A stretch of DNA of 64,000 nt from Patescibacteria group bacterium (GCA_038062675.1 JBBTWP010000004.1:6751-70750), one strand, 5' to 3'; positions 3,732-35,546 are shown, counted from the stretch's first letter. Made by a program: numbers and translations. The notes: generated by a model not told the origin, from the sequence alone.

Positions 3732-3758
3732 GCAAGGCAGAAATTGCACTTTTCGATT

Positions 3759-4281: not shown

Positions 4282-4290
4282 TTTTTATTG

Positions 4291-15345: not shown

Positions 15346-15355
15346 TTCGGCGCTA

Positions 15356-15493
15356 CGTGCGACAAGTCTTTTTCAGGGTACGGATATTCTGGTCGCGCCC
15401 AAAGGACTTGCGCGACACGATTCCGCAGAATCGAAAATCCTGAAGTTCTCGCGCCGTCGCGCTCCCTAGTCCCTGAAAAAGACTTGTCGCACG
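15356..15493 (+). ncRNA. Structured element A: a 23-bp perfect outer stem enclosing a REP-like unit (15392-15437) and a conserved core TCCTGAAGTTCTCGCGCCGTCGCGCTC. Candidate ncRNA or palindromic insertion element.
   Basis: CGTGCGACAAGTCTTTTTCAGGG ... CCCTGAAAAAGACTTGTCGCACG. The core is shared with the elements at 31029 and 35341. Confidence 0.5.
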
Positions 15494-15520
15494 CGCGGAG
15501 TTAATAATGTCTTCATGAAA

Positions 15521-15560
15521 AAGAAAAAAGGCGGACATTCCTGTCCGCCTTTCGAGTTTT
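15521..15560. terminator. Bidirectional terminator between rpoD and the minus-strand small membrane gene
   Basis: GGCGGACA-TTCC-TGTCCGCC stem with an A-run upstream and a T-run downstream. Confidence 0.6.
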
Positions 15561-15567
15561 AGGCGAT

Positions 15568-15825
15568 TCATTTTTTTGGATCTTCCTCTTCTTCCATATG
15601 GACTTCTGGTTGAAGTAAGCCGATTTTTGCTAAATAACAAAGAGTGCATCCAACCGAATACAGTACAAGGTAAATAAACACCCACAGCCCGACTGTTGAC
15701 ACCAGAATCCCTTGCCGTAGCACGGCACCATTGTTCATCCAGAGTTCATGCATCGTCAGTGTTCCTAGTGTTGCCAGTACAAAAGCAATGACTCCATTTG
15801 GGTATTTCTTAGGTTTCACGATCAT
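15568..15825 (-). CDS. Hypothetical small membrane protein (85 aa, two TM helices)
   Basis: Perfect AGGAGG Shine-Dalgarno 8 nt upstream. Hydrophobic helices. Acidic C-terminal tail. Confidence 0.5.
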   Translation of the reverse strand: MIVKPKKYPNGVIAFVLATLGTLTMHELWMNNGAVLRQGILVSTVGLWVFIYLVLYSVGCTLCYLAKIGLLQPEVHMEEEEDPKK

Positions 15826-15892
15826 CTATTTTTCCTCCTCTTTTGGGAATGTTCAAATGTAGCTTTTTCAATTATACACCCAAACGTGGGAC

Positions 15893-15921
15893 TTGTCAAT
15901 ACCACGCTTGCGTGCTAGAGT
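15893..15921 (+). promoter_or_regulatory. Possible promoter for sufB (TTGTCA-17-TAGAGT). It would make the mRNA nearly leaderless.
   Basis: The -10 element ends 8 nt before the chosen ATG at 15929. Confidence 0.25.
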
Positions 15922-15928
15922 GGGGGAT

Positions 15929-17287
15929 ATGAATGAGGTTAAAAACACTCACAAAAGCAAGGAAAACCAACCTCTTTCGGAGGCGCTTGTTCGTCATATC
16001 TCGGCGACAAAGAATGAGCCGGCGTGGATGCTGGAAAAGCGCCTCGCGGCGTACGAGCTGTACCAGAAAGCACCCATGCCAAAGTGGGGGCCTTCGCTCG
16101 CGAATCTTGATCTTGATGGTATGAATTTTTACGCTGACCCCGGAGTTGCCGAGACTGATGCATGGGAGGACTTGCCAGCAGAAATTACAGAAACATTTGA
16201 AAAACTCGGTATTCCAAAAGCAGAGCGCGAGTACCTTGGTGGCGTGGGTGCGCAGTATGACTCAGGGATTGTGTACCATCGTCTGAAACAGTCGCTTGCC
16301 GACAAGGGGGTGATTTTTGAAAACATGGATGTTGCACTCCAAAAATATCCTGAGCTCGTGCAGAAATATTTCATGACAAAGTGCGTGCCGATTACCGACC
16401 ACAAGTTCGTCATGCTTCATGCGGCAGTGTGGAGTGGTGGGACGTTTATCTACGTCCCCAAGGGGGTAAAAGTTGGCATGCCACTCCAAGCGTATTTTCG
16501 TATGAACCGCGAACGCAGTGCACAGTTTGAGCACACGCTTATCATTGCAGACGAAGGTTCGGAGATCGAGTACATTGAAGGGTGTTCGGCGCCACGATAT
16601 AATTTTTCTTCACTTCATGCGGGGTGTGTCGAGATTTTTGTGCATGCAGGGGCGAAGGCAAAATATGTGAGCATTGAAAACTGGTCGCTCAATACGTACA
16701 ACTTGAACACCAAGCGCGCCATTGTGGAAAAGGATGCTGAAATAAAATGGGTGAACGGCAACATGGGTTCGGGGGTGACGATGCTCTATCCTTCGTCGGT
16801 GCTCGTGGGGGAGGGTGCTCGTGCCGACAACTTGGGGCTCGTAATTGCGGGAAAAGGACAAGTGCAGGATACGGGCGCGAAGTCGATTCACCTTGCGCCA
16901 CACACGACCTCAACTATCTATTCAAAGTCTATTTCAAAAGATGGTGGCATTGCAAACTATCGTGGGCTCATTAAAGTTTCTTCTCGTGCGCATGGGTCGC
17001 GTGCGTCGCTTGTGTGTGACTCGCTTCTTCTCGACAAGGGGTCGAAGGCAAATGCGTTTCCTGCGGTTGAGAATGCAAACGACGACGTGGAGATTTCGCA
17101 CGAAGCGCGTATTGGGCGCATTGGTGACGAAGAGATTTTCTATTTGAAGACACGCGGGTTTACGGAGTCTGCTGCGGTGCGCCTCGCGGTTAATGGTTTC
17201 GCACAGCCAATCATTAAAGAACTTCCTCTCGAGTACGCGGTCGAGCTCAATAAATTGATTGCGCTTGAAATGGGGGAGGATGCGTGA
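15929..17287 (+). CDS. sufB: Fe-S cluster assembly protein SufB
   Basis: FEHTLIIADEGSEIEYIEGCSAP and C-terminal beta-helix repeats. GGGGGA Shine-Dalgarno. The longer ORF starts at 15893. Confidence 0.9.
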   Translation: MNEVKNTHKSKENQPLSEALVRHISATKNEPAWMLEKRLAAYELYQKAPMPKWGPSLANLDLDGMNFYADPGVAETDAWEDLPAEITETFEKLGIPKAEREYLGGVGAQYDSGIVYHRLKQSLADKGVIFENMDVALQKYPELVQKYFMTKCVPITDHKFVMLHAAVWSGGTFIYVPKGVKVGMPLQAYFRMNRERSAQFEHTLIIADEGSEIEYIEGCSAPRYNFSSLHAGCVEIFVHAGAKAKYVSIENWSLNTYNLNTKRAIVEKDAEIKWVNGNMGSGVTMLYPSSVLVGEGARADNLGLVIAGKGQVQDTGAKSIHLAPHTTSTIYSKSISKDGGIANYRGLIKVSSRAHGSRASLVCDSLLLDKGSKANAFPAVENANDDVEISHEARIGRIGDEEIFYLKTRGFTESAAVRLAVNGFAQPIIKELPLEYAVELNKLIALEMGEDA

Positions 17288-17299
17288 TCTGTTTTTTGT

Positions 17300-18544
17300 A
17301 TGATTGATAAGAATATTAAAAAAGATTTTCCAATTTTTGGCCAAGGTCTCGGTGAGGGGCAGGGTTTTGCGTATTTAGACACGGCAGCGACGTCGCAGAC
17401 GCCGAAAGTGGTACTTGATGCAATGGAGGAATATTACACAAAGTTTCGTGCGAATATTCACCGTGGAACATATAAAGCGGGGCAAACTGCGAGTGAGGCG
17501 TACGAGGATGCGCGGGCGAGCGTAGCGCGTTTTATTGGTGCGGAGAAGCAGGAAGTCATTTTTACAAGCGGCGCGACGGCATCATCAAATATGCTGGTTT
17601 CCATGCTTGAGCATTCAAAATTCCAAGGGTTACCCTTGGAAGAGGGGGGTGAAATCGTTACGACCGCGATGGAGCATCACGCGAGCCTCATTCCGCTTCA
17701 AGAACTTGCGCGACGGCACGATTTGGATTTGAAGCACCTTCCACTGGTAGATAATGGAGTTGCACTTAATTATGATGTGGTGGAGAAATTTATAACTCCG
17801 AAAACAAAAATAGTGAGCGTGATGCTTGCGTCGAATGTGACGGGGGTGATCAACGATGTGGCGCGCATTGCGGAGGTTGCGCATAAGGTCGGCGCGCTTG
17901 TGGTGTGTGATGCTACGGCAGCAGCGGGGCACATGTCGGTTGATGTGAAAAAACTCGACGTCGATTTTCTGTATTTTTCGGGGCACAAGATGTGCGGTCC
18001 GACGGGGGTGGGAGTGCTCTGGGGGCGCGCTGAACTTTTAAAAAATCTTGAACCGGGTGTGTATGGTGGGGGGATTGTGGATGAAGTGACGCTTGCGCGT
18101 GCAACGTGGCGCGGGATTCCCGAACGGTTTGAAGCGGGGACACCGAACATAGGAGGGGTGATTGGGCTTGGTGCGGCGGTCAAATACCTGGAAAAAGTTG
18201 GGGTGGATAATGTTCACGCGCATAGTGCAAAACTCGCGGAGGAGGCAATTGCGCGTCTTGAGGAAATTTCTGGTGTGCGGGTGATTGCGGAGCGTGATGG
18301 TATAAAAAATGTCGGCATTGTTTCGTTTGTCGTCGAGGGGGTTCACCCCCATGATGTTGCAGAAATTTTGGGTCGGGAAGGTGTCGCAATCCGTGCGGGG
18401 CACCACTGCGCGATGCCCTTGGTGACCGATGCACTCGGAGTGACTGCGGTGTCTCGTGCCAGTTTTTATTTGTATAATACTGCGGAAGACATTGACGCGC
18501 TTATGAATGGAGTGAAGAAAGCACAAGCGGTTTTTGAAAAATAA
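17300..18544 (+). CDS. sufS: Cysteine desulfurase SufS (class V aminotransferase)
   Basis: PLP lysine in FSGHKMCGPTGVGVL and active-site Cys in RAGHHCAMP. Confidence 0.9.
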   Translation: MIDKNIKKDFPIFGQGLGEGQGFAYLDTAATSQTPKVVLDAMEEYYTKFRANIHRGTYKAGQTASEAYEDARASVARFIGAEKQEVIFTSGATASSNMLVSMLEHSKFQGLPLEEGGEIVTTAMEHHASLIPLQELARRHDLDLKHLPLVDNGVALNYDVVEKFITPKTKIVSVMLASNVTGVINDVARIAEVAHKVGALVVCDATAAAGHMSVDVKKLDVDFLYFSGHKMCGPTGVGVLWGRAELLKNLEPGVYGGGIVDEVTLARATWRGIPERFEAGTPNIGGVIGLGAAVKYLEKVGVDNVHAHSAKLAEEAIARLEEISGVRVIAERDGIKNVGIVSFVVEGVHPHDVAEILGREGVAIRAGHHCAMPLVTDALGVTAVSRASFYLYNTAEDIDALMNGVKKAQAVFEK

Positions 18545-18585
18545 AAAAAAGAGGCCGCGATAAGACGGCCCCTTTGTGTAGGAAA
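18545..18585. terminator. Bidirectional terminator
   Basis: A-run, GGCCG-CGATAAGA-CGGCC stem, then CCTTTGTG. Confidence 0.5.
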
Positions 18586-18590
18586 AGAAG

Positions 18591-18956
18591 TTACCCTTCT
18601 TTTCCTACGACTTCATCCAACATTTTGCTCGCGTGGGGTACAATCGATTTTGCGATTAAGGTAACTATCGCAAAAACCCCAAGAGCAAACAAGAAGAATA
18701 CTGCTATCAACAAGACTCCAATGTTGGTCATTGCCTCGTTCATTATAGTGTTCGCGCTGACCGCTATTGTTGTACCTATTGCAGTTACCATCAGGAGTCT
18801 GAGGGCAAAGGCGATTCCGATGAGTCCACCAATGACGATGAGTCCCCGAATGAGATATTTTTTCATTGTTTCGGGTGACTTTTTCCCTTGAATTATCATA
18901 ACGATGAAAAGTACAAGGATTGCTACAAATGCAGGTAATACCAGAAATTTGTACAT
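18591..18956 (-). CDS. Hypothetical membrane protein (about 121 aa, 3-4 TM)
   Basis: AAAGGGGAAA Shine-Dalgarno upstream of an internal ATG. Strongly hydrophobic. Confidence 0.5.
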   Translation of the reverse strand: MYKFLVLPAFVAILVLFIVMIIQGKKSPETMKKYLIRGLIVIGGLIGIAFALRLLMVTAIGTTIAVSANTIMNEAMTNIGVLLIAVFFLFALGVFAIVTLIAKSIVPHASKMLDEVVGKEG

Positions 18957-19068
18957 GGAGTTTCCCCTTTGTTGGATGTGAATGTGACTTGTCTGGTTAT
19001 AATTATACACGAATTCAAGAACTTGTCAAGCCCCACAAAATGGGCTATACTAAAGGATATTTTGAGAT

Positions 19069-19449
19069 ATGAACGAAGAACTCTATAAAGAAAACTTACT
19101 CGACCACAGTGCACATCCGCACAACAAGCGGGTGATTGAAGGCATTTGTCTTGAAGCCGAGGCACGTAATGCGTCCTGTGGTGATCGTGGCGTGCTTCAA
19201 ATTGCGATGGGGGATGATGGGCGCGTATCTGATTCCGCATTTCAGGGTGAAGGGTGCGCCGTCTCTCAGGCGGCGCTCTCAATGCTTACCGACAAACTCA
19301 AAGGTCTGACAGTGTCGGATATGAAGCTCTTGTTGCCCGGCGATATTTATACTATGCTGGGGGTACACATAAGTCCGGCGCGGGTGAATTGTGCGCTTTT
19401 GGGATATGAGGCGCTCCAAAAAATTTTGTTGTCTGTGCCGCAAAAATAA
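19069..19449 (+). CDS. sufU: Fe-S cluster scaffold SufU/IscU-like protein
   Basis: HPHNKRVIEG, ...CGD and ...GEGCAVSQA motifs characteristic of NifU/IscU N-terminal domain proteins. Confidence 0.8.
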   Translation: MNEELYKENLLDHSAHPHNKRVIEGICLEAEARNASCGDRGVLQIAMGDDGRVSDSAFQGEGCAVSQAALSMLTDKLKGLTVSDMKLLLPGDIYTMLGVHISPARVNCALLGYEALQKILLSVPQK

Positions 19450-19450
19450 C

Positions 19451-20182
19451 ATGTCTCCCATTCTCTCTATTAAAAATTTTACCGTGCGACGTGAGGGTAA
19501 GGTTGTTGTCGACGATGTTTCTTTGGATGTGCGTGCAGGGGAACTTCACATTCTCATGGGGCCTAACGGGTCAGGGAAGTCGACGCTCTTGAATGCACTC
19601 ATGGGGCACCCTGCGTACGAGGTGGTGGGCGGAGAGATGCTTCTTGATGGTGAAGACCTTGCACAGCTTTCGACAGAAAAAAAGGCAGCACGGGGATTAT
19701 TTTTGTCTCCGCAACATGCGCCCAAGGTTGATGGCGTAACCATGCTTGCATTTCTCCACCGTGCGTATCGCATCATTAAAAAAAGCGAAATTTCAGTTCC
19801 TTATTTTTATAATAAACTTACGACAAAAGTGAAAGAGTTTGGGTTTGAGGAGGGGCTTCTAAAACGATTTGTGAATGTTGGATTTTCGGGTGGGGAGAAA
19901 AAACAGGGAGAAATGATTCAACTTCTTGCCCTTGAACCAAGGTTCGCGCTTCTCGACGAGATTGATTCGGGGGTTGATGTAGATTCCTTGAAAAATGTAT
20001 TTGGGACGATTGAAAAACTGCGTGTACAGGGAGTTGGGTTTCTATTGGTGACACATTTGGGTACTGTTCTTGAACATGTAACCCCCGACCGTGTGTCTGT
20101 CATGAGAGATGGAAAAATTGTTCGGACAGGGGACGCTGCCCTCGCGCGCGAGATTTTAACTAAGGGATTTGAAAACATTTAA
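19451..20182 (+). CDS. sufC: Fe-S cluster assembly ATPase SufC
   Basis: Walker A GPNGSGKST, ABC signature FSGGEKKQ and Walker B ALLDEIDSG. Confidence 0.9.
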   Translation: MSPILSIKNFTVRREGKVVVDDVSLDVRAGELHILMGPNGSGKSTLLNALMGHPAYEVVGGEMLLDGEDLAQLSTEKKAARGLFLSPQHAPKVDGVTMLAFLHRAYRIIKKSEISVPYFYNKLTTKVKEFGFEEGLLKRFVNVGFSGGEKKQGEMIQLLALEPRFALLDEIDSGVDVDSLKNVFGTIEKLRVQGVGFLLVTHLGTVLEHVTPDRVSVMRDGKIVRTGDAALAREILTKGFENI

Positions 20183-20184
20183 AT

Positions 20185-20481
20185 ATGAAAAACATTCAAG
20201 AAAAAGATATTATTGAAAAGCTGAAACTCGTGAAAGACCCCGAGATTGGGATTGATGTGTGGACATTGGGACTGATTTACAAAATCACTATCGAGAAAGA
20301 TAGCGTAGAAATCCTGATGACGCTCACGACCCCGTTTTGTCCTTTTGCAGATGAGCTTATGGCTGATATAGAAAAGCAGGTGAGTGCATTCGGGTACGCA
20401 AAAGGTGCGGTGCGGGTGGAGCTGACGTTTGAGCCGGCATGGGAACCGTCGGCGGAGCTTCGGCTCATGATGGGGGTTTAA
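20185..20481 (+). CDS. DUF59/MIP18-family (SufT-like) Fe-S assembly protein
   Basis: KDPEIGIDVWTLGLIY...TPFCP motif, sitting at the end of the suf operon. Confidence 0.75.
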   Translation: MKNIQEKDIIEKLKLVKDPEIGIDVWTLGLIYKITIEKDSVEILMTLTTPFCPFADELMADIEKQVSAFGYAKGAVRVELTFEPAWEPSAELRLMMGV

Positions 20482-20526
20482 AAAAACTGCCCGCCTTTTT
20501 TTAAAAAGGCGGGCAGTTTTTTTAAA
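20481..20526. terminator. Long bidirectional terminator hairpin
   Basis: AAAAAACTGCCCGCC-TTTTTTT-AAAAAGGCGGGCAGTTTTTTT. Confidence 0.8.
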
Positions 20527-20543
20527 CGTAATTTCCTAGGGTA

Positions 20544-21281
20544 TTACTTTGCAAGCAATGCGTCAATTTGTGCTTTCACTGCTCCGAATGGTTGTGCCCC
20601 GTCGATAGTGCCCACAACTTTTTTGTCTACGAGGATGAGCGAATGAGGAGTGCCACGTACACCTGCTTTGATTCCGCTCGCAAGTCCTGCTTCAATGATA
20701 GGCTTCATTTCATCACTTGCGAGGCATGCCGTGAATGCTGCTTCGTCGATGCCAATTTCTTGTGCAAGTTTTGGAAGCAGGGACATGTCGAGTCCGTTGT
20801 TGGCGGGAGTTATTTCAAAAATTTTGTTCGTGTACTCCCAGAATTTTGCATTTCCACCAAGTTTTGAAACACACTCAGTTGCTTGCGCTTCTTTGTCTGC
20901 TTTGGAGTGGAACGAAAGCGGGAAGTGGCGATACACCCAAGCTACTTTGCCACTCTCCCCATATTCGCTCATTACTTGGTTCATGCTTTTGTGGAATGTC
21001 TTACAAAAAGGACACTCGAGGTCGGAGTATTCAACGATAACAATTTTTGCATTTGGGTTGCCGAGAATATGGTCTTTGTTGGTGACGGGGTCGAGACTTG
21101 CAGCTTGGTTTCCTGTGGGCGCAGCAAGAACACCTCTGTTGTTGTCACCAAAATAAATTGCCGCCGCAATCGCTATTCCTGCAATGACGATTGCAAAGGG
21201 AATGGCAAGACTTTGCATGAGCGCGGGCTGTGGTTTCGTTGCGACAGTTTGTTCGGTTGGCGTGTTGTTCATTGGTTCCAT
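20544..21281 (-). CDS. DsbA-family thiol:disulfide oxidoreductase, membrane-anchored
   Basis: N-terminal TM helix. CPFCK thioredoxin active site. Confidence 0.8.
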   Translation of the reverse strand: MEPMNNTPTEQTVATKPQPALMQSLAIPFAIVIAGIAIAAAIYFGDNNRGVLAAPTGNQAASLDPVTNKDHILGNPNAKIVIVEYSDLECPFCKTFHKSMNQVMSEYGESGKVAWVYRHFPLSFHSKADKEAQATECVSKLGGNAKFWEYTNKIFEITPANNGLDMSLLPKLAQEIGIDEAAFTACLASDEMKPIIEAGLASGIKAGVRGTPHSLILVDKKVVGTIDGAQPFGAVKAQIDALLAK

Positions 21282-21394
21282 GAATAATGTAAGTTAACTG
21301 ACGGTGTAATACTCTTTAGTGTACGCTACCTGCAGGAATCAAGCAAGCAGTCTATTCTTTGTGTTTTAGGGTAAATCATGGTTATATTAGGATT

Positions 21395-21967
21395 ATGGAA
21401 ATTAAAAGCGCCGTATTTGTAAAGGGGATTGTCGGGACCGACGATATCATGAAAAAAGAGACCCCGCAGGTGGCGTTTGTTGGGCGATCGAATGTGGGCA
21501 AATCGAGCGTTATCAACTCCCTTCTTCCCAAAAAGAATCTCGTAAAGTCGAGTTCGATGCCTGGCAAAACCAAAGAAATCAACTTTTTCCTTATTAATGA
21601 AAATCGCTTTTTTGTCGATTTGCCCGGTTATGGTTTTGCGCGCATGAGCTCAAAGGGCGCCGAAAAACTCCGGAAACTTATCCTATGGTATCTCGTAAAG
21701 GGGCGGTCGCGGCTGTCGCTTGTGGTGCTTATTGTAGATGCTTCTATTGAGCCCATGCCGTATGATGAAGAAATGGTGGGTATTTTGCGCAACGAACAAA
21801 TCCCTTTTGTGATTGTGGCAAACAAAGTTGACCGCCTCAACCAATCCACCCGCGCGAAAAGTCTAAGAGCTCTAGAGTCCGTTTTTGCTACACCTATTCT
21901 TCCCTATTCCGCAAAAACAAAAGAAGGCCGTGACGAACTTTTTGCCGAGGTGTTCGCAGAGGAATAA
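21395..21967 (+). CDS. engB: Ribosome biogenesis GTP-binding protein EngB/YsxC
   Basis: G1 GRSNVGKSS, G3 DLPGYGF and G4 NKVD. Confidence 0.85.
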   Translation: MEIKSAVFVKGIVGTDDIMKKETPQVAFVGRSNVGKSSVINSLLPKKNLVKSSSMPGKTKEINFFLINENRFFVDLPGYGFARMSSKGAEKLRKLILWYLVKGRSRLSLVVLIVDASIEPMPYDEEMVGILRNEQIPFVIVANKVDRLNQSTRAKSLRALESVFATPILPYSAKTKEGRDELFAEVFAEE

Positions 21968-22016
21968 GGAGCTGTATTTTTTGTCGAAGTTGTGTCGGTG
22001 TGGTACACTGAAACAA

Positions 22017-22949
22017 ATGCATACATCTCGGGTTATTGTGGTGGGAGTGGTGTTGGTTGGAGCGACTTTGCTTGCGGTGTGGTATGGTGGGTGGTCAAGT
22101 AGTGAGAAACCAATTGCCGAAGAGGGGAAGTTGTCCGTGATGACGAGTTTTTATCCGTTGGCATATCTTGCGCAAGCGATTGGCGGAGGTATGGTTTCGG
22201 TTACCAATATGACGCCTCCTGGTTCTGAACCACACGATTTTGAACCGTCTCCTCGGCACATGATTTTGATGGGGAAAGCAAAACTTTTTATGTATAATGG
22301 TGCGGATTTTGAGCCATGGGTTATGAAGTGGCGCGCTGGGGCATTTGAACACCCAGAAAGAATTCTTGATATGGCGGCGACACTCAAGGGTCGTGGAGTA
22401 AGTTTGCTAGAAAAACAGGGCTCTGTAGATCCGCATGTCTGGCTTGATCCGCTGGTAATGATTAAAGAGGCGGAGATTGTGCGCGATTCTTTCTCCCTGC
22501 TCGATCCAGCACAGACTGATTATTATACAGAAAATGCAGTACGGGTGATTGATCTCCTTACCAACCTTGACCGTGCGTTTCGGGCCGGACTTGGTGTGTG
22601 CGAGCAAAATGACATCGTTGTGTCACACGAAGCATTCGAGTACCTTGCCCGTGCATACGGCATTCACGTAACTTCAATTGCAGGCATTTCTCCTGACGAG
22701 GAACCTTCACCAAAAGAACTTGCGCGTATTGTTGCTTTGGTTCGGGCAAAAGGAGTCAAATATGTCTTTTTTGAAACAACAGCAAGTCCAAAGCTTTCAG
22801 AAGTTCTTGCTCGAGAGATTGGGGGAGAGACGCTCGTTCTGAACCCACTTGAAAGTCTTACCCCTCATGAGTTACAATCAGGGGAAGATTATGTTTCATT
22901 AATGATGATGAATCTAAATAATTTACGCAAAGCTCTTGTATGTCAATAA
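22017..22949 (+). CDS. znuA: Metal (Zn/Mn) ABC transporter substrate-binding protein
   Basis: TM/signal anchor. TroA/ZnuA-like fold motifs DPHVWLDP and HEAFEYLARAYG. Confidence 0.8.
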   Translation: MHTSRVIVVGVVLVGATLLAVWYGGWSSSEKPIAEEGKLSVMTSFYPLAYLAQAIGGGMVSVTNMTPPGSEPHDFEPSPRHMILMGKAKLFMYNGADFEPWVMKWRAGAFEHPERILDMAATLKGRGVSLLEKQGSVDPHVWLDPLVMIKEAEIVRDSFSLLDPAQTDYYTENAVRVIDLLTNLDRAFRAGLGVCEQNDIVVSHEAFEYLARAYGIHVTSIAGISPDEEPSPKELARIVALVRAKGVKYVFFETTASPKLSEVLAREIGGETLVLNPLESLTPHELQSGEDYVSLMMMNLNNLRKALVCQ

Positions 22950-24497: not shown

Positions 24498-24560
24498 AAA
24501 CTACTCGCCACATGCGGGTTTCTAACATAGGGGGAGATTGTGGTAAGTACTTAATGATAA

Positions 24561-24593
24561 AGCGCCCGTTTCGACAAAGTCGAAACGGGCGCT
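24561..24593. other. Perfect 15-bp stem-loop in a 450-nt convergent intergenic region, with no flanking T-tract
   Basis: AGCGCCCGTTTCGAC-AAA-GTCGAAACGGGCGCT. Confidence 0.6.
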
Positions 24594-25538: not shown

Positions 25539-25550
25539 GATTTTGTTATG

Positions 25551-26114: not shown

Positions 26115-26122
26115 AATCTTAT

Positions 26123-27574: not shown

Positions 27575-27721
27575 TTTGTTACCAATTCATTATACCAAGT
27601 TTTTAAAGAGCATGCTATACTTTTTGAGAAGAAAGCGTTATTGATAATTTTAAAATAAAATTTTTATGATAAGTTCACGATTGTTTTCTGAAACCTTAGT
27701 CTTATTATACTAATCGACACT

Positions 27722-30205
27722 ATGTCACTTCGAACAAAAATAATTAGCTTGCTCGGGATAATTACGGTTCTTTTATTGGGTCTTGTTGTTTATTATTTTC
27801 AGTATCCGTTGAAAGAAAGTTTTAGGCGAGAAGTCGAGAGCAATCTAAATGATTTAGCGGAAGTCAATTTACGTACTTACCGTGCGTTTTCCGAAGGACT
27901 CAAGATCCGCACAGTGGACTGGAGCGCAGGCGACCAAGTGGTACGATTTGCAGAAAAAATTTTAGATAAAAATACTCCACTTGCAAAGAGAAATCTTGCA
28001 GCAAGTGAATTTGCTGCGTACATTCGTGAATACAAAATGCCCTATGACCCCGATGCTATTATTGTCGAGATACTTGACTCAGAGGGGGTGGTCGTTGCCT
28101 CAACACGCGAAGATAGAATAGGTACAGACGAACGCCAAGAAGAAATCGAAAACAACGTGCACCATTTTGCAAAAACGCTGCACGCGGGCATTGGAGAGGC
28201 GTTCATGCGAGGCTCTGTACTCGAAGCGGACGAGACGGATCGGCCTATGTCGCACATAACAACTCGCTTGTTTTCAAAAAGAAAAGACGCGCAAGGGAAT
28301 TTTATCCCCCTCCCGGGAGTTTTTCTTGTTCATTTTGTTTCCGCTGCTTCCTTGTTGGAATTTCAGCAAAAAAAATCTGACAAAAATCTCGCTACGGACT
28401 CTCTAAATAAATCTGTGACAGGACTTCAAGGTCTTGATGTGTATTTAGTGAATGGTGATCGTTTGATTGCAAGCGCACCAAACTCGGGAAGTGCGGAGAT
28501 GGTCGGAAAACCAATTGCCACAAAACCAGTGAGCGAGTGTTTTGATCGCGGAACCGATACGTTTGGGGAATATGTAAATTATAGAGGGGTAACAGTCTTG
28601 GGTGCTTCACGTTGCCTTGTAGAGGAAGGAGTCTTGATTTTAAATGAGATGGAAGTCAAAAAAGCTTATACTTTTTTGACTGACTTGGTTCGAAAAACAA
28701 TTTTTGCCGGAGTAGCATTAGCAGCAGGATTCGTTTTTTTTGTGATTCTCGTCACTCGACGACCATTGAAAAACCTTAAACTCATGGTTGATGTTGCCGA
28801 AGCTGTGTCTAAAGGAGACCTTACTAAACGAGCTCTCGCTATTGGACGTGATGAAATCGGCTACCTTGCCCGTGTTTTTAATGCAATGCTCGAAACAATA
28901 TCAGCGTCTCAAGGCAAGTTAATGGAATCAGAGAAAAAACTTGAGCAGGAAGCAGAAAAACTCTTGAAAGATTTGAGTGAACATAAAGAGCAGTCAAAAT
29001 TTGTCGAACAATCAAAGCGTGCCACACAAAATCTTCTGGAAGACGCGTGGGAAATTAAAGAAAAGCTTGAAGTTGAACGTAATCGATTACAGACGATTCT
29101 CGCTTCTATTGGTGACGCCTTGGTGCTTATTGATATTCAGTACAGTATTGTATTGGTCAATCCAAAAGCAGTTGAAATTTTTGCAACACCTGCCACGGAT
29201 CTCCTTGGAAAAGACTTGCGTGTAGTAATGAAACTGATAAAGAAGAAGAAAGGAGAATTGTCGCCCGCAGAGTGGCCTATTGAAGAAATGTTTCTTGCAA
29301 AACACGTGATAGTTGCTGACCTTGAAGATGAACTCTCTTTGATGACCGAAAAGCGCACAGGACCTCTCCCGATAGCGCTCTCTGCGGCGCCTCTTGTGGG
29401 AGAAGGCGGGGAAACTACGGGTGGGGTGATTGTTATTCGTGACGTAACGGAGGATCGAGAGCTCGATGAGGCGAAGTCAGGCTTTATTTCTGTTGCTTCG
29501 CACCAACTCCGTACGCCTCTTACAACGATTCGTTGGTATTCGGAAATGCTTTTGGGGGACGATGTGGGAAACATGACTAAAGAGCAACGAGAATTTCTCG
29601 AAGAGATTCATGGCGGGGCGGAGCGGTTGTATCAAACTATTGACTTGCTTTTGGGTATTTCCCGTGTCGAGAGCGGGAAGCTAAAAGCTGAAAAAAAGCC
29701 TATTGATCTTACTTTATTTACAGCTGATTTAGGAAAAGAACTTGCTCCACAGATGATCGAAAAGAAGTTGGTATTTTCAATGGTGCCTCCCCTTGGTGAA
29801 CCAGTGATTGTTTCGCTTGACCCTCTAACGCTTCGCCAAGTGGTGCTGAACTTGGTTTCTAATGCAATTCGTTACACCAATGAAAATGGTACGATTGAAG
29901 CGAAGTGGGCAGTTGATGATAAGCATACCGAAGTAACGTATTTAGTAAAAGACAATGGTATCGGCATTCCTTTGGCTCAGCGTGGACGCATTTTCTCGAA
30001 ATTTTTCCGAGCAGAGAATGCGCTTTCCAAGGTTCCTGATGGGTCAGGGCTTGGACTTGCCTTGGTTAAGGAACTTGTTCTCGCATGGGGTGGAAAAGTT
30101 TGGTTTGAGGTTGAGGAAGGAAAGGGAACTACATTTTTCTTTACGATTCCCCTCGTGTCCTCCGTGGAGCCACTTGCAGAAGATGCTCAACGTGCTAAGA
30201 TATAA
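27722..30205 (+). CDS. Sensor histidine kinase (TM-sensor-TM-HAMP-PAS-HisKA-HATPase)
   Basis: H-box ISVASHQLRTPL, N-box LVSNAIRYT, G1 KDNGIGIP and G2 GSGLGLALV. Confidence 0.85.
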   Translation: MSLRTKIISLLGIITVLLLGLVVYYFQYPLKESFRREVESNLNDLAEVNLRTYRAFSEGLKIRTVDWSAGDQVVRFAEKILDKNTPLAKRNLAASEFAAYIREYKMPYDPDAIIVEILDSEGVVVASTREDRIGTDERQEEIENNVHHFAKTLHAGIGEAFMRGSVLEADETDRPMSHITTRLFSKRKDAQGNFIPLPGVFLVHFVSAASLLEFQQKKSDKNLATDSLNKSVTGLQGLDVYLVNGDRLIASAPNSGSAEMVGKPIATKPVSECFDRGTDTFGEYVNYRGVTVLGASRCLVEEGVLILNEMEVKKAYTFLTDLVRKTIFAGVALAAGFVFFVILVTRRPLKNLKLMVDVAEAVSKGDLTKRALAIGRDEIGYLARVFNAMLETISASQGKLMESEKKLEQEAEKLLKDLSEHKEQSKFVEQSKRATQNLLEDAWEIKEKLEVERNRLQTILASIGDALVLIDIQYSIVLVNPKAVEIFATPATDLLGKDLRVVMKLIKKKKGELSPAEWPIEEMFLAKHVIVADLEDELSLMTEKRTGPLPIALSAAPLVGEGGETTGGVIVIRDVTEDRELDEAKSGFISVASHQLRTPLTTIRWYSEMLLGDDVGNMTKEQREFLEEIHGGAERLYQTIDLLLGISRVESGKLKAEKKPIDLTLFTADLGKELAPQMIEKKLVFSMVPPLGEPVIVSLDPLTLRQVVLNLVSNAIRYTNENGTIEAKWAVDDKHTEVTYLVKDNGIGIPLAQRGRIFSKFFRAENALSKVPDGSGLGLALVKELVLAWGGKVWFEVEEGKGTTFFFTIPLVSSVEPLAEDAQRAKI

Positions 30206-30222
30206 GAATAATATTTGTAAAA

Positions 30223-30606
30223 ATGGAAGCACAAAAACAAAAAACTATTCTTTTGGTGGAAGACGACAAAGCGCTTAATCGTGCGGTGATGTTTAAGCTT
30301 GAGCAAAAGGGACACAAAGTCATCTCAACCATGCGTGCCGAGGATGCGCTGGATATTCTCAAAAAAGAATCCGAACATATTGATATTATTTGGCTGGATA
30401 TTCTTTTGCCCGGCATGAACGGCATTGAATTTTTGGAAGAAATTCGCAAGCGCGAAGAAGGGAAAGATAAAAAAGTAGTTGTTTGCTCGGTTTCTGGGCG
30501 TGCGGACTCAAAAGGGGTTGCGTATGAGCTCGGCGTGGTTGATTATTTAGTGAAAAGCGATTATGATTTGAATACTCTTGTCGAGAAGGTTGTGAGTTAT
30601 GCGTAG
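30223..30606 (+). CDS. Stand-alone response regulator receiver (CheY-like)
   Basis: DD pair ILLVEDD, phospho-acceptor D in IWLDILLPGMNG and a conserved K near the C-terminus. Confidence 0.85.
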   Translation: MEAQKQKTILLVEDDKALNRAVMFKLEQKGHKVISTMRAEDALDILKKESEHIDIIWLDILLPGMNGIEFLEEIRKREEGKDKKVVVCSVSGRADSKGVAYELGVVDYLVKSDYDLNTLVEKVVSYA

Positions 30607-30625
30607 GTTTTTAGACTCTTAAATT

Positions 30626-31006
30626 ATGGATACTAACAAGAAAAAAATAGTAATTGTGGAGGACGATGATCATATTTCAAAAGTATATGAGATAAAGTTC
30701 GCCAAAGAAAATGTAACCACTGTTGTTGCGCGTGACGGTGAGGAGGGTGTGGCGAAAATCAAATCAGAAAAACCGGACATGATTTTACTTGACCTCATGG
30801 TTCCCAAGAAAGATGGATTCGCGGTGCTTGAAGAAATAAAGAAAATTCCAGAGCTCGCCAAGATTCCTGTTATGGTTCTCTCAAACCTTGGTCAAAAGGC
30901 TGACCAAGAACGTGCCATGGCACTTGGTGCAAATGAATATTTGGTCAAGGTTGATTACCCCATTCAGGAAGTAATCAACAAGGTCAAGGGGTACTTGGGG
31001 TTGTAG
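30626..31006 (+). CDS. Second stand-alone response regulator receiver
   Basis: IVIVEDDD, ILLDLMVPKKDG and a conserved K near the C-terminus. Paralogue of the previous gene. Confidence 0.85.
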   Translation: MDTNKKKIVIVEDDDHISKVYEIKFAKENVTTVVARDGEEGVAKIKSEKPDMILLDLMVPKKDGFAVLEEIKKIPELAKIPVMVLSNLGQKADQERAMALGANEYLVKVDYPIQEVINKVKGYLGL

Positions 31007-31028
31007 GGGTAAGTTACGGAACCGCTTA

Positions 31029-31128
31029 CGCAGTGTGCTGTTGTAAGGGTACGGATTTTTTGAAGCTTAAAAAATCCTGAAATTCTTACGCCGTCGCGTT
31101 CGAAACCCCCTTAAAACAGCACACTGCG
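31029..31128 (+). ncRNA. Structured element C: covarying outer stem CGCAGTGTGCTGTT/AACAGCACACTGCG around an inner TTTTTTGAAGCTTAAAAAA hairpin and the conserved core
   Basis: Core CCTGAAATTCTTACGCCGTCGCGTTCGAAACCCCC is homologous to elements A and B. Sits immediately 3' of the response-regulator stop. Confidence 0.5.
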
Positions 31129-31267
31129 ACGGGTTTCGTAATCTGGCATTTCAAAATGGAAGGACCGAGTGATAGTTATCCACAGGGAACTTTTCTTTTT
31201 CAAGTCCCCTTTGCTATAATAAAAGAGCATTATTAAAAATTTATAAATTATGATTTCATCAATAAAC

Positions 31268-31942
31268 ATGGCAGAGAAGCGCAAAGACGGTTTTACTCTT
31301 CTCGAACTTTTAATCGTTATTTCGATTATCGCGATTTTGTCAGTAGCACTTGTGCTGGTCTTGGATCCCGCAGAAACTTTAAAGAAGTCACGTGACTCAC
31401 AGCGTCTTTCGGATTTAAGTACCATGAAAACAGCAATCGCGCTCTATCTCACGAGTACGACAACTCCGTATTTGGGAGCTGCAACAGCAGGGGCTTTGAA
31501 TAATACTAATTGCAAAGCAACGCCATCTGCCGCAACCGCTAAGGTTATGTACTCGCTCGTTTCAACCAGTGCTATTACCGATACAACACTTGACGCAGCT
31601 TCGGCCTCGGCAGCCGTTCAAGTTGCAACACCATCGTTAACAAATGGTGCAGGATGGATTCCTGTTATGTTTGACAATTTAACTGGTGGATCTCCAATCT
31701 CCAACATGCCTCTCGATCCCGTTAACACCGTGACCGCACTTGGGGCTGTCGCAAGCACTGATCTTGTATACCGATATGCATGTTCAGTAACTCCGTTGGC
31801 ATTTGAGCTTGGAGCACAACTTGAAAGTATTGCGTATACGTCAACTGATAATAAGAAGTCAACTGATGGTGGCAATAATGACAACTACTACGAAGTTGGT
31901 ACAAATCTGAGAATTCTTGATGGCGCAACGAACCAATACTAA
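31268..31942 (+). CDS. Type IV (major) pilin with a class III signal peptide
   Basis: KRKDG|FTLLELLIVISIIAIL prepilin cleavage/methylation motif with Glu at +5. C-terminal DGGNNDNYYE. Confidence 0.8.
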   Translation: MAEKRKDGFTLLELLIVISIIAILSVALVLVLDPAETLKKSRDSQRLSDLSTMKTAIALYLTSTTTPYLGAATAGALNNTNCKATPSAATAKVMYSLVSTSAITDTTLDAASASAAVQVATPSLTNGAGWIPVMFDNLTGGSPISNMPLDPVNTVTALGAVASTDLVYRYACSVTPLAFELGAQLESIAYTSTDNKKSTDGGNNDNYYEVGTNLRILDGATNQY

Positions 31943-31967
31943 ATCCTTATTAATTAATTCACTATTT

Positions 31968-32717
31968 ATGATTTCACTTATCACCGCAAATGAAGAAAAG
32001 CGCAAGAATGGATTTACCCTCCTTGAGCTCTTGATTGTTATTTCAATCATCGCCATTTTATCCATCGCCCTTGTGTTCTTGCTCAACCCTGCGGAAACAC
32101 TTAAGAAAGCTCGTGATGCACAGCGCATCTCAGACTTGAAGACTATTAAGACTGCCCTCGGCGTTATGCTTACAGCAAGCTCAACGCCAAGTTTGGATAG
32201 TTTCACCGCACAAGCAACAGCAGTATGTCTCACTGCAACAACAGCAGCAGGAGCGACTACATTGTCTACGGCTCCGAAAATTAGATATAGTGCCAATACT
32301 GCGCCTACTCTGACTTCTGCCACCCCTGGAGCTGATGCTGCAAGTACTGCAACAGCTTTTATTTCCGCTGCTTCTGGCTCAACGGCAGGAAAAGTTGATG
32401 CTACGGGCTGGATCCCAGTAAATTTGAAAGCGTTGACAGGAGGTACACCAATTTCAGCTTTTCCTATCGACCCTGTTAATACTGTCAGTTCTACTGCTAC
32501 TGTCACAGATCTTGTTTATCGCTACGCATGTCAAAACGGAACGACAGCGTCAGTTGGTTCAGGGAAGCCAGCATATATTTTTGAGATTGATGCTGTACTT
32601 GAAAGTAACGCGTATACTCAGGATGATAACAAGATGTCAAAAGATGGCGGAGACAATGACTCTTACTATGAGTCAGGGAATAGTTTGAATCTCTTGCCTG
32701 CTGCAGGTGCATTCTAG
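31968..32717 (+). CDS. Type IV pilin paralogue (longer ORF from 31917)
   Basis: KRKNG|FTLLELLIVISIIAIL. C-terminal DGGDNDSYYE, conserved with the upstream paralogue. Confidence 0.8.
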   Translation: MISLITANEEKRKNGFTLLELLIVISIIAILSIALVFLLNPAETLKKARDAQRISDLKTIKTALGVMLTASSTPSLDSFTAQATAVCLTATTAAGATTLSTAPKIRYSANTAPTLTSATPGADAASTATAFISAASGSTAGKVDATGWIPVNLKALTGGTPISAFPIDPVNTVSSTATVTDLVYRYACQNGTTASVGSGKPAYIFEIDAVLESNAYTQDDNKMSKDGGDNDSYYESGNSLNLLPAAGAF

Positions 32718-32744
32718 TTTGATTCATTAAATTTTGATTTTACA

Positions 32745-32783
32745 AAAACACCCCCGCGGAAACGCGAGGGTGTTTTTGTGTTT
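32745..32783 (+). terminator. Rho-independent terminator after the pilin pair
   Basis: AAAACACCC...GGGTGTTTT outer stem with a CGCG-GAAA-CGCG inner stem, then a T-run. Confidence 0.7.
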
Positions 32784-32817
32784 TGGTGCTAAAAATTTTA
32801 TGTGATAGAATATTTCC

Positions 32818-33513
32818 ATGATGGATATAATAGAGAATATGTATTTACGGGTTTTGTTTCAGTTTACACATCCAGAGCCGCAGGTGATTGTGGGCATAAT
32901 TTGGCTTTTGATTGTAGTTGTCGCACTTTTTCGTTACATAGAATTTTCGTTTTTTACACGGGTTTCGTGGAAATGGCTTGTGGTTGTGGCTGTTGTTCTC
33001 CGTATTGGTTACGGTGCAACTCTAACATGGCTGCAATATGCACAATGGGAGAGTAGTTCATTTACTCAAACTTTTTTGACTCAACCGCTTTCAAAAGAAG
33101 CGCCACTTCCACTTCTTCTTGAATGGGTGCGTCCCTCTCTGGAGCAACCATTGGGATATTTTATTTTTTATGTATTCGGACGCTTTTGGATTAACATCAT
33201 AATCATTTTAGGGCTAGCAGGATTTTTTGCAGCACTCCTCAAGCTTCGTGCGTATTATCGTCCTTGGAACTTTAAAGAAGGAGAGATCTTGGCAATTACA
33301 CTTTCTCTCCTTGTGTCGGGGTGGCCGGGGGTTATCGTCCTCCTGCCCCTTGCGTTTATTTTTGCAATTATTTTCTCAGTCATCTCTTCTACTTTTTACG
33401 GAGTTTCGCGAATTTATCTAACCCCTGCGTTTTTGGTTGCCGCTCCTGTTGCGCTCCTGTACGGGGCAGCGATCCTTAAGTTCGTTGGTTTGTACGCTCT
33501 ACTCAAAATCTAA
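32818..33513 (+). CDS. Hypothetical polytopic membrane protein in the pilus locus
   Basis: Six or so TM helices. Almost no acidic residues, so it is not an A24 prepilin peptidase. Confidence 0.5.
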   Translation: MMDIIENMYLRVLFQFTHPEPQVIVGIIWLLIVVVALFRYIEFSFFTRVSWKWLVVVAVVLRIGYGATLTWLQYAQWESSSFTQTFLTQPLSKEAPLPLLLEWVRPSLEQPLGYFIFYVFGRFWINIIIILGLAGFFAALLKLRAYYRPWNFKEGEILAITLSLLVSGWPGVIVLLPLAFIFAIIFSVISSTFYGVSRIYLTPAFLVAAPVALLYGAAILKFVGLYALLKI

Positions 33514-33623
33514 TTCCCTAGGACCGTCCTCGGGAAATGTTCTCGGAAAGTTAAAAGAGTGGAATAGAGTTATACACATTTTTAAAGTCGTTATCGGATT
33601 TTGGTATGATATACTTATAACTA

Positions 33624-35333
33624 ATGCATATTGGACAAGAAAAGCTAAAAGAAATATTGCTTGAATCCGGACTCGTGAGCGATGAGGATTTTGAATATGC
33701 TACTGCAGAGGCTCGGCGCAGCGGACAGTCGCTTTCTAATGTCTTGGTTGGAGAAGGCAAAATTTCTGAAGATTATTTTACCGAACTCCTTGCTCCCTAT
33801 TATGGTGTTCAGGTTGTGAATCTCAAAAAAGAAACTATAGACCATGAGATTTTGGAGCTTATTCCTGAAATATACGCGAAGTCAAAGAATATTGTATTGT
33901 TTTTTTATGATAAAGAGAAAGGTATTGCAAAACTTGCCATGCTCGACCCCTTTGACTACGATACTATTGAGTATGTGCGGGCGAAGCTTGATGCGTGGGT
34001 CGAACCTTATCTCTCGACAGTCGCAAGTGTTCGTTATGGGCTCAAGCAATACAGCACAAAAATCGGTGTTGGCTTTGAACAAATCATTTCTGAAAATGTT
34101 GAACAGTCGCTTTCTGTTGCTGAAGAAAAAGATCTTTCAAAAACAGCTGCGTCGGTGCCTATTGTTACCATCCTTGATAATGTTATCGAGCATGCAGTTA
34201 CTTTAAATGCATCCGATATTCATTTTGAGCCCCTTGAGCATGAACTTTTGGTGCGTTTTCGTGTCGATGGCATCATGCAGGAGGTGGTGAGTCTCCCGAA
34301 AGCAATTGCTCCTGTTTTGGTCGCGCGCGTAAAAATCCTCGGAAGTCTTCAGATTGACGAACACCGCACCCCTCAGGATGGACGTTTTCGTTTTGATATG
34401 GACGATGGATCAAATATTGATTTACGCGTAAATATCATGCCGATTTTCCACGGGGAGAAAGTGGAAATGCGTCTCTTGAAGAGCTCTGCGCGACCACTGA
34501 CGCTCAAAGACCTTGGTTTTTCGGATGCAAATACCGCAGTCCTTGTAAATGAAGTCAAAAAACCCCACGGTATGATTTTAGTGACGGGGCCAACAGGACA
34601 TGGAAAAACTACAACACTGTATGCGGTGTTGCATATTCTCAATAAACCATCCGTGAACATTACAACCATTGAGGATCCTATTGAGTATGAGTTTCCGCGC
34701 GTAAATCAAACACAAGTAAACCAGAAAGCGGGGATTACGTTTGCAAATGGACTTCGCGCGCTTTTGCGTCAAAATCCCGACATCATTATGGTGGGTGAAA
34801 TCCGTGATAATGAGACGGTTGAAATTGCAATTCATGCCGCGCTTACGGGGCACCTTGTGCTGTCATCACTTCACACCAATGATGCCCCCTCTGCTATCCC
34901 ACGCCTTTTGGATATGGGTGCGCCGGCGTTCCTGTTGTCTTCAACTATCAACATGGTTATCGCTCAGCGTCTTGTGCGACGTATTTGTGCGTCGTGTACC
35001 GAGTCATATCCTGTAAGCCCAGAAATGGCGCGCCTTCTCAAGGCGCAAATCGAGCTGGCGGGGACCACAAATAGTAATGTTCCGGCGAGCTTGTTTCGTG
35101 GTAAGGGGTGCAAGGTATGCGGGAATTCCGGATATCAGGGGCAGATTGGTATTTTCGAGCTTTTGCGGGTTACTGAATCAATTCGTGCATTGATTTTGGA
35201 CGAAGCATCCATTCCGGAAGTGCGAAAGAAAGCAATTGAAGAGGGGATGATCACGATGTTTGAAGACGGGCTCGACAAGGTTGAGCGGGGAGTTACGACT
35301 GTGGAGGAGGTGCTCAGGGTAGTAAAAGAATAG
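33624..35333 (+). CDS. pilB: Type IV pilus assembly ATPase PilB (GspE family)
   Basis: N-terminal GSPII_E_N-like domain. Walker A GPTGHGKTT, Asp box, His box and tetracysteine CASC...CKVCGNSGY. Confidence 0.9.
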   Translation: MHIGQEKLKEILLESGLVSDEDFEYATAEARRSGQSLSNVLVGEGKISEDYFTELLAPYYGVQVVNLKKETIDHEILELIPEIYAKSKNIVLFFYDKEKGIAKLAMLDPFDYDTIEYVRAKLDAWVEPYLSTVASVRYGLKQYSTKIGVGFEQIISENVEQSLSVAEEKDLSKTAASVPIVTILDNVIEHAVTLNASDIHFEPLEHELLVRFRVDGIMQEVVSLPKAIAPVLVARVKILGSLQIDEHRTPQDGRFRFDMDDGSNIDLRVNIMPIFHGEKVEMRLLKSSARPLTLKDLGFSDANTAVLVNEVKKPHGMILVTGPTGHGKTTTLYAVLHILNKPSVNITTIEDPIEYEFPRVNQTQVNQKAGITFANGLRALLRQNPDIIMVGEIRDNETVEIAIHAALTGHLVLSSLHTNDAPSAIPRLLDMGAPAFLLSSTINMVIAQRLVRRICASCTESYPVSPEMARLLKAQIELAGTTNSNVPASLFRGKGCKVCGNSGYQGQIGIFELLRVTESIRALILDEASIPEVRKKAIEEGMITMFEDGLDKVERGVTTVEEVLRVVKE

Positions 35334-35340
35334 GACGCTC

Positions 35341-35435
35341 GCTAAGTTCTTTTTAGGGTACGACTTTTTTGAAGCTTAAAAAAGTCTGAAGTTCTCGCGC
35401 CGTCGCGCTCAAAACCCCCTAAAAAGCAACTTAGC
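35341..35435 (+). ncRNA. Structured element B: outer stem GCTAAGTTCTTTTTAGGG/CCCTAAAAAGCAACTTAGC, inner GACTTTTTTGAAGCTTAAAAAAGTC hairpin and conserved core
   Basis: Core CTGAAGTTCTCGCGCCGTCGCGCTCAAAACCCC is identical to element A. Sits immediately 3' of the pilB stop. Confidence 0.5.
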
Positions 35436-35546
35436 TCGCTTTAAGGTTAAATGCCGTGTAGGGCACCAAGAAAAAGAAGAGCTCGCTTTACAGTGTCAAT
35501 CTGATGTATAATAAATGTAGTATTCAAATATTGAATTCGCAAATTT

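Follow-up and report, generated by a model that had tools for sequence, protein, structure and literature searches.

What are the hairpin-shaped repeats that lie directly downstream of rpoD, a response-regulator gene and pilB in a 64,000-nt stretch from a Patescibacteria group bacterium (GCA_038062675.1, JBBTWP010000004.1:6751-70750; hereafter the window)? A sequence-only reading had recognized in three elements, A, B and C, a common core within outer stems of differing sequence, and had explained them as a structured RNA or, alternatively, as a small mobile element. Our analysis favors mobility: A, B and C are probably copies of a non-autonomous, hairpin-shaped mobile DNA element of Paceibacteria/Parcubacteria-type lineages, as sampled, of the candidate phyla radiation (CPR). 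The repeat family is real and apparently undescribed so far. The unit that appears at new sites is the whole hairpin including its arms; surviving copies are mostly found right behind genes, in both orientations, or in frame within linkers between protein domains; and compensatory changes alter the helices but leave the junction as it is. The occurrence of both orientations, the in-frame intragenic copies and the presence or absence between relatives argue for mobile DNA rather than a dedicated RNA gene.

The unit as we reconstruct it has inverted-repeat arms 7-25 bp long, runs of T and of A, a short closing helix (P1) and an asymmetric three-way junction of ~65 nt, made up of two hairpins and their three joining strands. 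The three copies in the window, with the genes that they follow and their parts, are these (bit scores are from the covariance model R1, introduced below):

14032-15345, plus strand: rpoD (stop codon 15343-15345), upstream of A
15356-15493, plus strand: element A, 29-48 bits
15356-15368 / 15481-15493: outer stem of A, CGTGCGACAAGTC / GACTTGTCGCACG, 13-bp perfect arms
15392-15433, plus strand: 42-nt unit resembling repetitive extragenic palindromic (REP) sequences, GTCGCGCC..GCGCGAC + GATTCCGCAGAATC, nested in hairpin 1 of A
15439-15464, plus strand: hairpin 2 and core of A
15524-15556: intrinsic terminator of rpoD, AAAAAAGGCGGACA-ttcc-TGTCCGCCTTT, ~30 nt downstream of A and outside the element; landmark for the empty site
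30626-31006, plus strand: response regulator (receiver-domain protein; stop codon 31004-31006), upstream of C
31014-31141, plus strand: element C, 88.6 bits
31014-31024 / 31130-31141: further layer of C, outer inverted repeat TTACGGAACCG / CGGGTTTCGTAA
31029-31042 / 31115-31128: outer stem of C, CGCAGTGTGCTGTT / AACAGCACACTGCG, 14-bp arms
33624-35333, plus strand: pilB (T2SSE/PilB ATPase; stop codon 35331-35333), upstream of B
35334-35461, plus strand: element B with carried flanks, 92.3 bits
35338-35341 and 35435-35438: CTCG direct repeats of B
35341-35349 / 35426-35435: outer stem of B, GCTAAGTTC / GCAACTTAGC
35349-35429: canonical three-way junction of B

The shared core was borne out over 26 nt, exact in A (15439-15464) and with one mismatch in B (35385-35410), and has no match in dinucleotide-shuffled sequence; C (31071-31116) is the more diverged copy; its identity is 78% with A (46 nt) and 84% with B (76 nt). 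The fold of all three has four parts, namely the outer stem, a short helix that closes the junction (AGGG/CCCU), hairpin 1, which is long and AU-rich, and hairpin 2, which is short and of GC pairs; z-scores against shuffles are -5.8 to -8.8 on the plus strand and about equal on the minus strand, the reverse strand folding about as well because the sequence is palindromic. A has a T5/A5 run, P1 (CAGGG/CCCTG), GGTAC and a hairpin 1 that is interrupted by the REP-like unit, and its 3' junction takes the subfamily-2 form described below, CCCTAGTC. C combines P1 AAGGG/CCCTT and a canonical hairpin 1 with a compensatory variant of hairpin 2, ACGC/GCGT. The copies begin, as had been noted, shortly after stop codons, with 7-22 nt from stop codon to hairpin start, and the covariance model finds no full copies in the window besides them. 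Two further claims need qualification. GGGTACG and the inner hairpin were both seen in B and C; in A, where the inner hairpin was thought to be replaced, the 42-nt REP-like unit is instead inserted into it, the hairpin base GGAT...ATCC being kept. Similarly, the outer stems pair within each copy and are unrelated to each other as long as only the window is considered, but across the family arms recur in other copies.

How far does the family extend? An exact-pattern scan with a 22-nt degenerate core, run on one genome per species, matched 72 DNA stretches, all but three of them in 35 Patescibacteria species genomes; the remaining three are chance matches within open reading frames (ORFs) of other phyla. 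The host assemblies are labelled Nomura-, Yonath-, Adler-, Yanofskybacteria, Paceibacterota and similar; the window itself comes from a Yonathbacteria-like Paceibacterium of Hainich groundwater. Outside the window the elements were studied in 8-kb loci, numbered with the prefix L, and R1 recovers 90 copies from the window, L105 and 69 pattern-matched loci. Copies measure 80-130 nt, with a common unit of ~80 nt, and follow the consensus (T5)-NCC-GGTAC-GGATTTTTTGAAGCTTAAAAAATCC-TGAAR-TTC-TC-GCGC-CGTC-GCGC-TC-GAA-AC-CCC-TT-(A5), which in its canonical form has stop codons in all sense frames. Conserved are the joining strands (G)TAC, CTGAAR and (G)AAAC, the last being replaced by CC[CG]UAGUC in subfamily 2 (A, L105, L044 and L166). 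The helices vary on both sides at once, as read in copies free of the search-pattern constraint:

hairpin 2, inner stem: GCGC/GCGC, GGCT/AGCC, GACT/AGTC, ACGC/GCGT, AGGC/GCCT
hairpin 2, outer stem: TTGGC/GCCAA versus TTTGC/GCAAA
hairpin 1: GGGATTTTCCC/GGGAAAATCCC, GGCGATTTTCC/GAAAAATCGCC
closing helix: CAGGG/CCCTG, GAGTG/CACTC, AAGAG/CTCTT

Among 82 distinct sequences, the share of cells that are paired is 94.3%, compared with 86.2% for shuffles, and both partners vary in 24 of 25 pairs; this alignment is model-fitted and thereby biased toward the structure, and an independent MAFFT alignment points in the same direction. Sliding the 3' partners by 1-3 columns gives far lower pairing values. 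Thus, the three-way junction with its fixed joining strands is real, and the proposed family with a conserved core and compensatory stem change stands. Rfam 15 assigned it to no known family: there was no match in the whole window at the gathering threshold, and the only long-hairpin matches of A and C in E-value mode are precursors of plant miRNAs, which fall short of the threshold by 100-160 bits. Nor did the core pattern have any match in viral contigs, and we found no literature on CPR repeats resembling miniature inverted-repeat transposable elements (MITEs) or Rickettsia palindromic elements (RPEs), or on the core sequence itself, in a search whose incomplete coverage leaves an earlier description possible.

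What happens at a site when an element is gained? Comparison with orthologous loci shows that rpoD, pilB and lepA sites without the element exist. The filled lepA allele of L167 is longer than the empty one of L168 by exactly 90 nt; the empty allele has a single CTAG, the filled one a CTAG at either end of the insert, and neither of the 7-8-bp arms of the L167 copy (TGCTGAT/ATCAGCA) occurs in the empty allele. In a second lepA pair, L169/L170, the loop is too diverged to place boundaries. The rpoD site is empty in L161 and L163 (RpoD 87% identical), where 12 nt separate the stop codon from AAAAAAGGCGGACA…TGTCCGCCTTTT, the same terminator as at 15524-15556; window and L161 differ by a single indel of ~169 nt, and the empty site has an intact terminator and no palindrome at the insertion point. 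L156 is likewise empty at rpoD and has its own, different terminator. L166 (81% identical) carries an A-type copy at this site, with REP insert and homologous right flank, in wholly different perfect arms (GCACCATCATAATGCC), and L153 (95% identical) carries a canonical copy with different arms again, its contig ending within the repeat. At pilB, the sister genome L171 (PilB 96% identical) has a pilB-pilC spacer of 71 nt, compared to 213 nt in the window; by affine-gap alignment and by eye, the extra DNA is 35334-35461, 128 nt with TAG(G) at both ends, and L171 has no hairpin there. Of 74 more distantly related pilB loci, none carries an element behind pilB, and 80 pilB loci of relatives, 867 kb in all, hold one distinct copy; in many relatives no more than 10-30 nt separate pilB from pilC. 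In six copies, which represent four arm lineages, the arms have CTCG on both sides. We set it aside as a target-site duplication, since at B both CTCGs lie inside the DNA without counterpart in L171, and CTCG is more likely part of a carried layer. Beside B, a 10-nt direct repeat, GCTCGCTTTA, occurs at 35434-35443, overlapping the last two bases of the right arm, and again 47 nt downstream, at 35481-35490; it may be a trace of another small insertion.

These comparisons bear on the idea that a ~70-nt core targets the loops of terminators or palindromes already in place, so that the outer stems would be host hairpins. It would account for copies C, L067, L014, L070 and L001, which sit within a hairpin family that also exists without the core, for the small hairpins nested in element loops (A, L009, L012, L046), and for the likeness to bidirectional terminators of roughly half of the AT-rich arms, which open with an A-run and close with a T-run. 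Yet the empty rpoD site offers no palindrome and its terminator persists downstream of A, the empty lepA site contains neither arm, and the sister genome has no hairpin at the site of B. Further, identical or related arms are found at unrelated sites: the arms and flanks of B are met again behind other genes in L054 and L046, a degenerate copy in the window has the same arm as the L067 copy, and three copies in one metagenome-assembled genome (MAG; L012/L053) have common arms. Nor do the copies in the window qualify as intrinsic terminators: their loops measure ~60-100 nt, and the right arm is not followed by a T-run. We thus consider this origin of the stems very unlikely. The outer stems arrive with the element; of the suggested mobile element inserting into palindromes or terminators, the mobile element is the better reading, the palindromes and terminators find no support for A, B and lepA, and hold in part for C-type copies, which are nested. 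A 'snap-back', in which the right arm would arise during insertion by inverted copying of the left flank, was also discarded: the empty lepA allele has neither arm, and what looks at A like an inverted rpoD end is accounted for by a palindromic TTAA / ATTATTAATAAT site.

The nesting of C is part of a wider pattern. Its outer inverted repeat is part of a distinct hairpin family that has GAATTACGAAACTC...GAGTTTCGTAATTC as conserved ends and whose center can be a plain loop, an unrelated palindrome or the present element; C, L067, L014, L070 and L001 are copies in the last situation, and family members without the core hold a plain loop or other inserts (L067:4193, L014:5683, L076:148). The regions of this family are:

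window 31014-31024 / 31130-31141
L067:4150-4215
L014:5530-5700
L076:60-170

The REP-like unit constitutes a second repeat family, of 41-42 nt, consisting of one hairpin GTCGCGC..GCGCGAC and another, GATTC-CGCA-GAATC; in the window it also forms tandem pairs after two genes, at 3759-3836 (minus strand) and 4289-4381 (plus strand). It is nested in hairpin 1 not only of A, but also, at differing points, of the L009, L046 and L166 copies, and it seems to insert into hairpin loops. In the L012 copy, a GC hairpin is nested in the element loop. The window further holds a degenerate fourth copy:

3744-3866 (approximate), minus strand: arm GGTGTCGTTTCAA, then AGGTACGGATTTTTT, then two REP-like units

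This copy is without hairpin 2 and right arm and carries GGTACGGATTTTTT after its arm; the arm itself (3853-3865, minus strand) is identical to that of L067. Mutual nesting of hairpin repeats is a habit of these genomes, not the source of the variable arms.

Where do the copies reside, and is their orientation that of a transcript element? The 90 R1 copies are placed as follows:

between convergent genes: 25 copies
between tandem genes, sense: 25 copies (+10 with only the upstream gene visible)
between tandem genes, antisense: 9 copies (+3 with only the upstream gene visible)
between divergent genes: 6 copies
inside ORFs: 5 real cases; 2 further assignments are artefactual or unchecked

After genes, 35 copies are thus sense and 12 antisense, so that ~74% of the oriented copies are sense to the upstream gene; the antisense copies score 92-106 bits, equal to the sense copies. 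At least four independent insertions are in frame and free of stops, in both orientations in lepA and further in uvrB and mnmA:

lepA, sense: L049/L065, peptide …DYGHGDFPAEKSPEVLAPSRSKLPPSAIS…
lepA, antisense: L071 and L167, peptide …GGFERDGARTS…
uvrB, antisense: L015
mnmA, sense: L044

In lepA the insertion point is the linker between VPPP and PRALVFDFQY, and in general the intragenic copies lie in inter-domain linkers, leave the flanking Pfam domains intact, contain no stops and have a length that is a multiple of three. As several independent insertions are all open, all multiples of three and in both orientations, they are presumably translated through rather than spliced out; splicing would need no frame, and the in-frame insertions therefore argue against a spliced RNA.

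A dedicated structured RNA would be a small RNA or an element of the 3' untranslated region (UTR); its junction would bind a ligand or protein, its outer stem would serve as a processing or terminator helix, and its copies would reflect the use of one RNA module by many genes. Strong covariation in all helices, invariant joining strands, the fold z-scores, hairpins that start right after stop codons, the excess of sense copies and the occupation of some sites in distant genomes are all in its favor. It does not explain, however, why a quarter of the copies are antisense and conserved equally well, why copies are translated in frame in lepA, uvrB and mnmA in both orientations, or why A and B are absent from close relatives; wobble-type mismatches moreover favor the strand antisense to most upstream genes, and no Rfam family matches. 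Orientation, intragenic copies and presence or absence thus count against the structured RNA that the earlier reading had put forward, and we regard it as unlikely.

The lepA linker is a conspicuous place in its own right. Between VPPP and PRALVFDFQY it spans 8-13 residues in most Paceibacteria and 25-74 in many (proteins P0121-P0240), and the long linkers contain recurring peptide types, such as EKVLGSASPQPDHF, GDPRTF.K and SASQVPQPS (including loci L049, L071 and L167-L170), which resemble insertions, at one spot, of further repeat families or of different reading frames. In L071, the LepA protein with the antisense element additionally shows a tandem duplication within the G domain (residues ~85-135, …vrmlwhpnraeqsevpeersegq vrmlwhpnraersevpkeqnegq…).

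The preference for gene ends could alternatively reflect a service to the host, with the hairpins maintained as terminators or protectors of mRNA 3' ends and spread by recombination after DNA uptake instead of selfish transposition; the core could then be a platform for a nucleoid or RNA-binding protein, much as BIME/RIP elements bind IHF in E. coli. Of ~80 intergenic copies, 25 lie between convergent and 6 between divergent genes, an enrichment that would fit such a role, in which orientation is irrelevant to hairpin function; the preserved pairing of the arms and the long retention of orthologous copies would fit as well. Insertions into coding regions have no terminator role, though, A stands upstream of a normal terminator and B between pilB and pilC, and occurrence is patchy among close relatives, which makes a host-maintained hairpin quite unlikely as the primary explanation. 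As a by-product or secondary benefit of a mobile element, an inserted long hairpin would probably also act as terminator or 3'-end stabilizer in AT-rich lineages.

How might a mobile hairpin with fixed junction and free ends be recognized? The fixed junction could be the signal for a trans-acting mobilization enzyme that acts on one folded DNA strand, presumably the complement of the GGTAC strand. Single-strand recognition fits because the ends need only pair and because arm mismatches are strand-asymmetric: on the GGTAC strand there are 42 A.C, 5 G.T and 32 other mismatches, and the excess of A.C implies that the complementary strand carries tolerated G.T wobbles. A candidate for the enzyme would be a Y1/HUH transposase of the IS200 or RAYT (REP-associated tyrosine transposase) type, which leads because such genes and their REP hairpins exist in the clade. 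The sister genome has a RAYT-like Y1_Tnp gene (PF01797) with flanking hairpins GTTGGACATCCAAAT.../GGACGTCCAACATCCAAA immediately upstream of pilB (L171:1-860). The flanking hairpin of the relatives' RAYT-like genes (GTTGGACATCCAAAT...) differs from the present element, and the window contains none of these genes. RAYT-like Y1_Tnp genes with hairpins are also seen upstream of pilB in L075, L077, L078, L086, L122 and L029; at the corresponding position, the window has an unrelated 231-aa ORF (32818-33513) with no Pfam match.

Several observations weigh against a mobile hairpin of this kind, or at least against the details of its mechanism. A clean short duplication is seen in just one filled/empty pair, L167/L168, and Y1 transposases normally make no duplication, so that even this one argues against a classic Y1 mechanism. 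No enzyme is tied to the element by any test here, and no split, ORF-carrying or autonomous version was found in the 1.5 Mb of loci searched. About 25 of the 42 A.C mismatches represent one inherited junction position, although the remaining ~17, against 5 G.T, lean in the same direction. The test of local GC skew yielded a strand preference of 52:27, which does not support strict replication-strand orientation and is confounded with gene orientation. L004, L016 and L069, all from one MAG, have 20-21-bp near-perfect arms that are mutually unrelated, which simple recent transposition does not explain, and the orthologous copies window A and L166 differ completely in their perfect arms. Distant genomes are occupied orthologously in L042/L055, L028/L044, window A/L166 and L016/L072, so that many copies must be old; purifying selection on the core of resident copies, and with it some host-level role, is conceivable. 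Finally, terminal repeats of ordinary MITEs are conserved because the transposase binds them, whereas the arms of the present element are far more variable and only their pairing is kept.

There is also an outside chance that the junction is more than a mark for recognition. In one variant it would be the working part of a structure-guided mobilization, in which the folded single strand (DNA or RNA) recruits, or helps to catalyze, cutting and joining; this would explain why any ends suffice if they pair. In the other, resident copies would have been co-opted as a CPR-specific protein-binding RNA module located at gene ends.

What does a mobile hairpin element mean for these organisms? CPR/Patescibacteria genomes are tiny and usually described as repeat-poor, and a structured repeat family common to at least 35 species in such small genomes is a useful marker as well as a natural experiment on the survival of selfish DNA in streamlined genomes. 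Structure-based recognition is suggested, and a new variant of transposition might come to light once the enzyme is named. Annotators should take the family as a warning not to label such hairpins riboswitch-like RNAs or terminators. The element breaks assemblies, as in L153, which ends inside a copy, lengthens conserved proteins such as LepA and inflates the number of 'hypothetical' ORFs. One of these, of 110 aa, appears in a mechanical ORF list at 15353-15685 on the minus strand and crosses element A and the rpoD terminator; public annotation of the contig places genes of 72 and 85 aa over it. At least the portion covering the repeat is probably not a real gene.

A few other observations concern the surroundings of the elements. 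Directly upstream of the first pilin-like gene's promoter lies AGTTATCCACAG (31174-31185), which includes the DnaA-box consensus TTATCCACA; this motif is kept at that position in most pilB-locus relatives, in an otherwise unalignable spacer. In L076, L077, L080, L082, L084-L086 and L142, an extra small gene lies between pilB and pilC, with short tandem repeats, for example GAATATTGAATATTGAATAT or TTGACATTTGACATGTAACATTTGACA, on both sides. Farther downstream, window positions 40706-41796 hold at least seven tandem copies of a ~135-nt unit (the last ones 126 nt) with 64-96% identity to reference copies, and related repeats are found at 40139-40634 / 41990-42479.

Does the element belong to a known kind? 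By sequence, it is no member of the RPE, MITE or REP/REPIN kinds, each of which it recalls in part. The junction closed by an outer stem bears a resemblance to the type III hammerhead, and its joining strands GUA / CUGAAG / GAAAC recall the hammerhead's UH / CUGANGA / GAAA. This assignment was rejected: the equivalent of the essential G8 is A in about half of the copies (G8 = R), A9 is U, the register of stem I misfits, subfamily 2 has no GAAA, and hammerhead models gave no match on A and C even at E<=10. RPEs are reportedly hairpin-forming non-coding repeats of ~100-150 bp that occur between genes as well as in frame in protein genes, where they are translated. The present element is similarly short, hairpin-forming and found in intergenic positions, and it shares the read-through, in-frame insertion in conserved genes with its copies in lepA (two orientations), uvrB and mnmA; it differs in its CPR hosts and in combining a conserved asymmetric three-way junction with variable arms. 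With REP/BIME sequences, REPINs and their RAYTs (Y1/HUH) and the palindrome-associated elements derived from IS200/IS605, it has in common a recognition that would be based on structure instead of terminal repeats, along with conserved unpaired bases, mosaic and nested units, a location at gene 3' ends and strand-asymmetric mismatches. However, REPs are single hairpins of 20-40 nt, described REPs have no counterpart of the three-way junction, and, unlike in the REP/REPIN-RAYT systems, no RAYT gene occurs in the window and none is tied to the element. Like MITEs such as Correia/NEMIS of Neisseria and ERIC of enterobacteria, it is small, has no ORF, ends in inverted repeats and is dispersed in many copies (90 copies of 80-130 nt in 35 species genomes), with a preference for gene ends, long transcribed hairpins and one clean short duplication (CTAG); like ERIC, it has a conserved central region and takes up extra sequences at internal sites. 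Ends common to an autonomous insertion sequence were not found in the 1.5 Mb of loci or in viral contigs, and its terminal inverted repeats, arms of 7-25 bp flanking every full copy, are atypical in that their sequence is not conserved family-wide. The architecture thus reverses that of ordinary MITEs: the three-way-junction core is fixed, and the ends are free as long as they pair.

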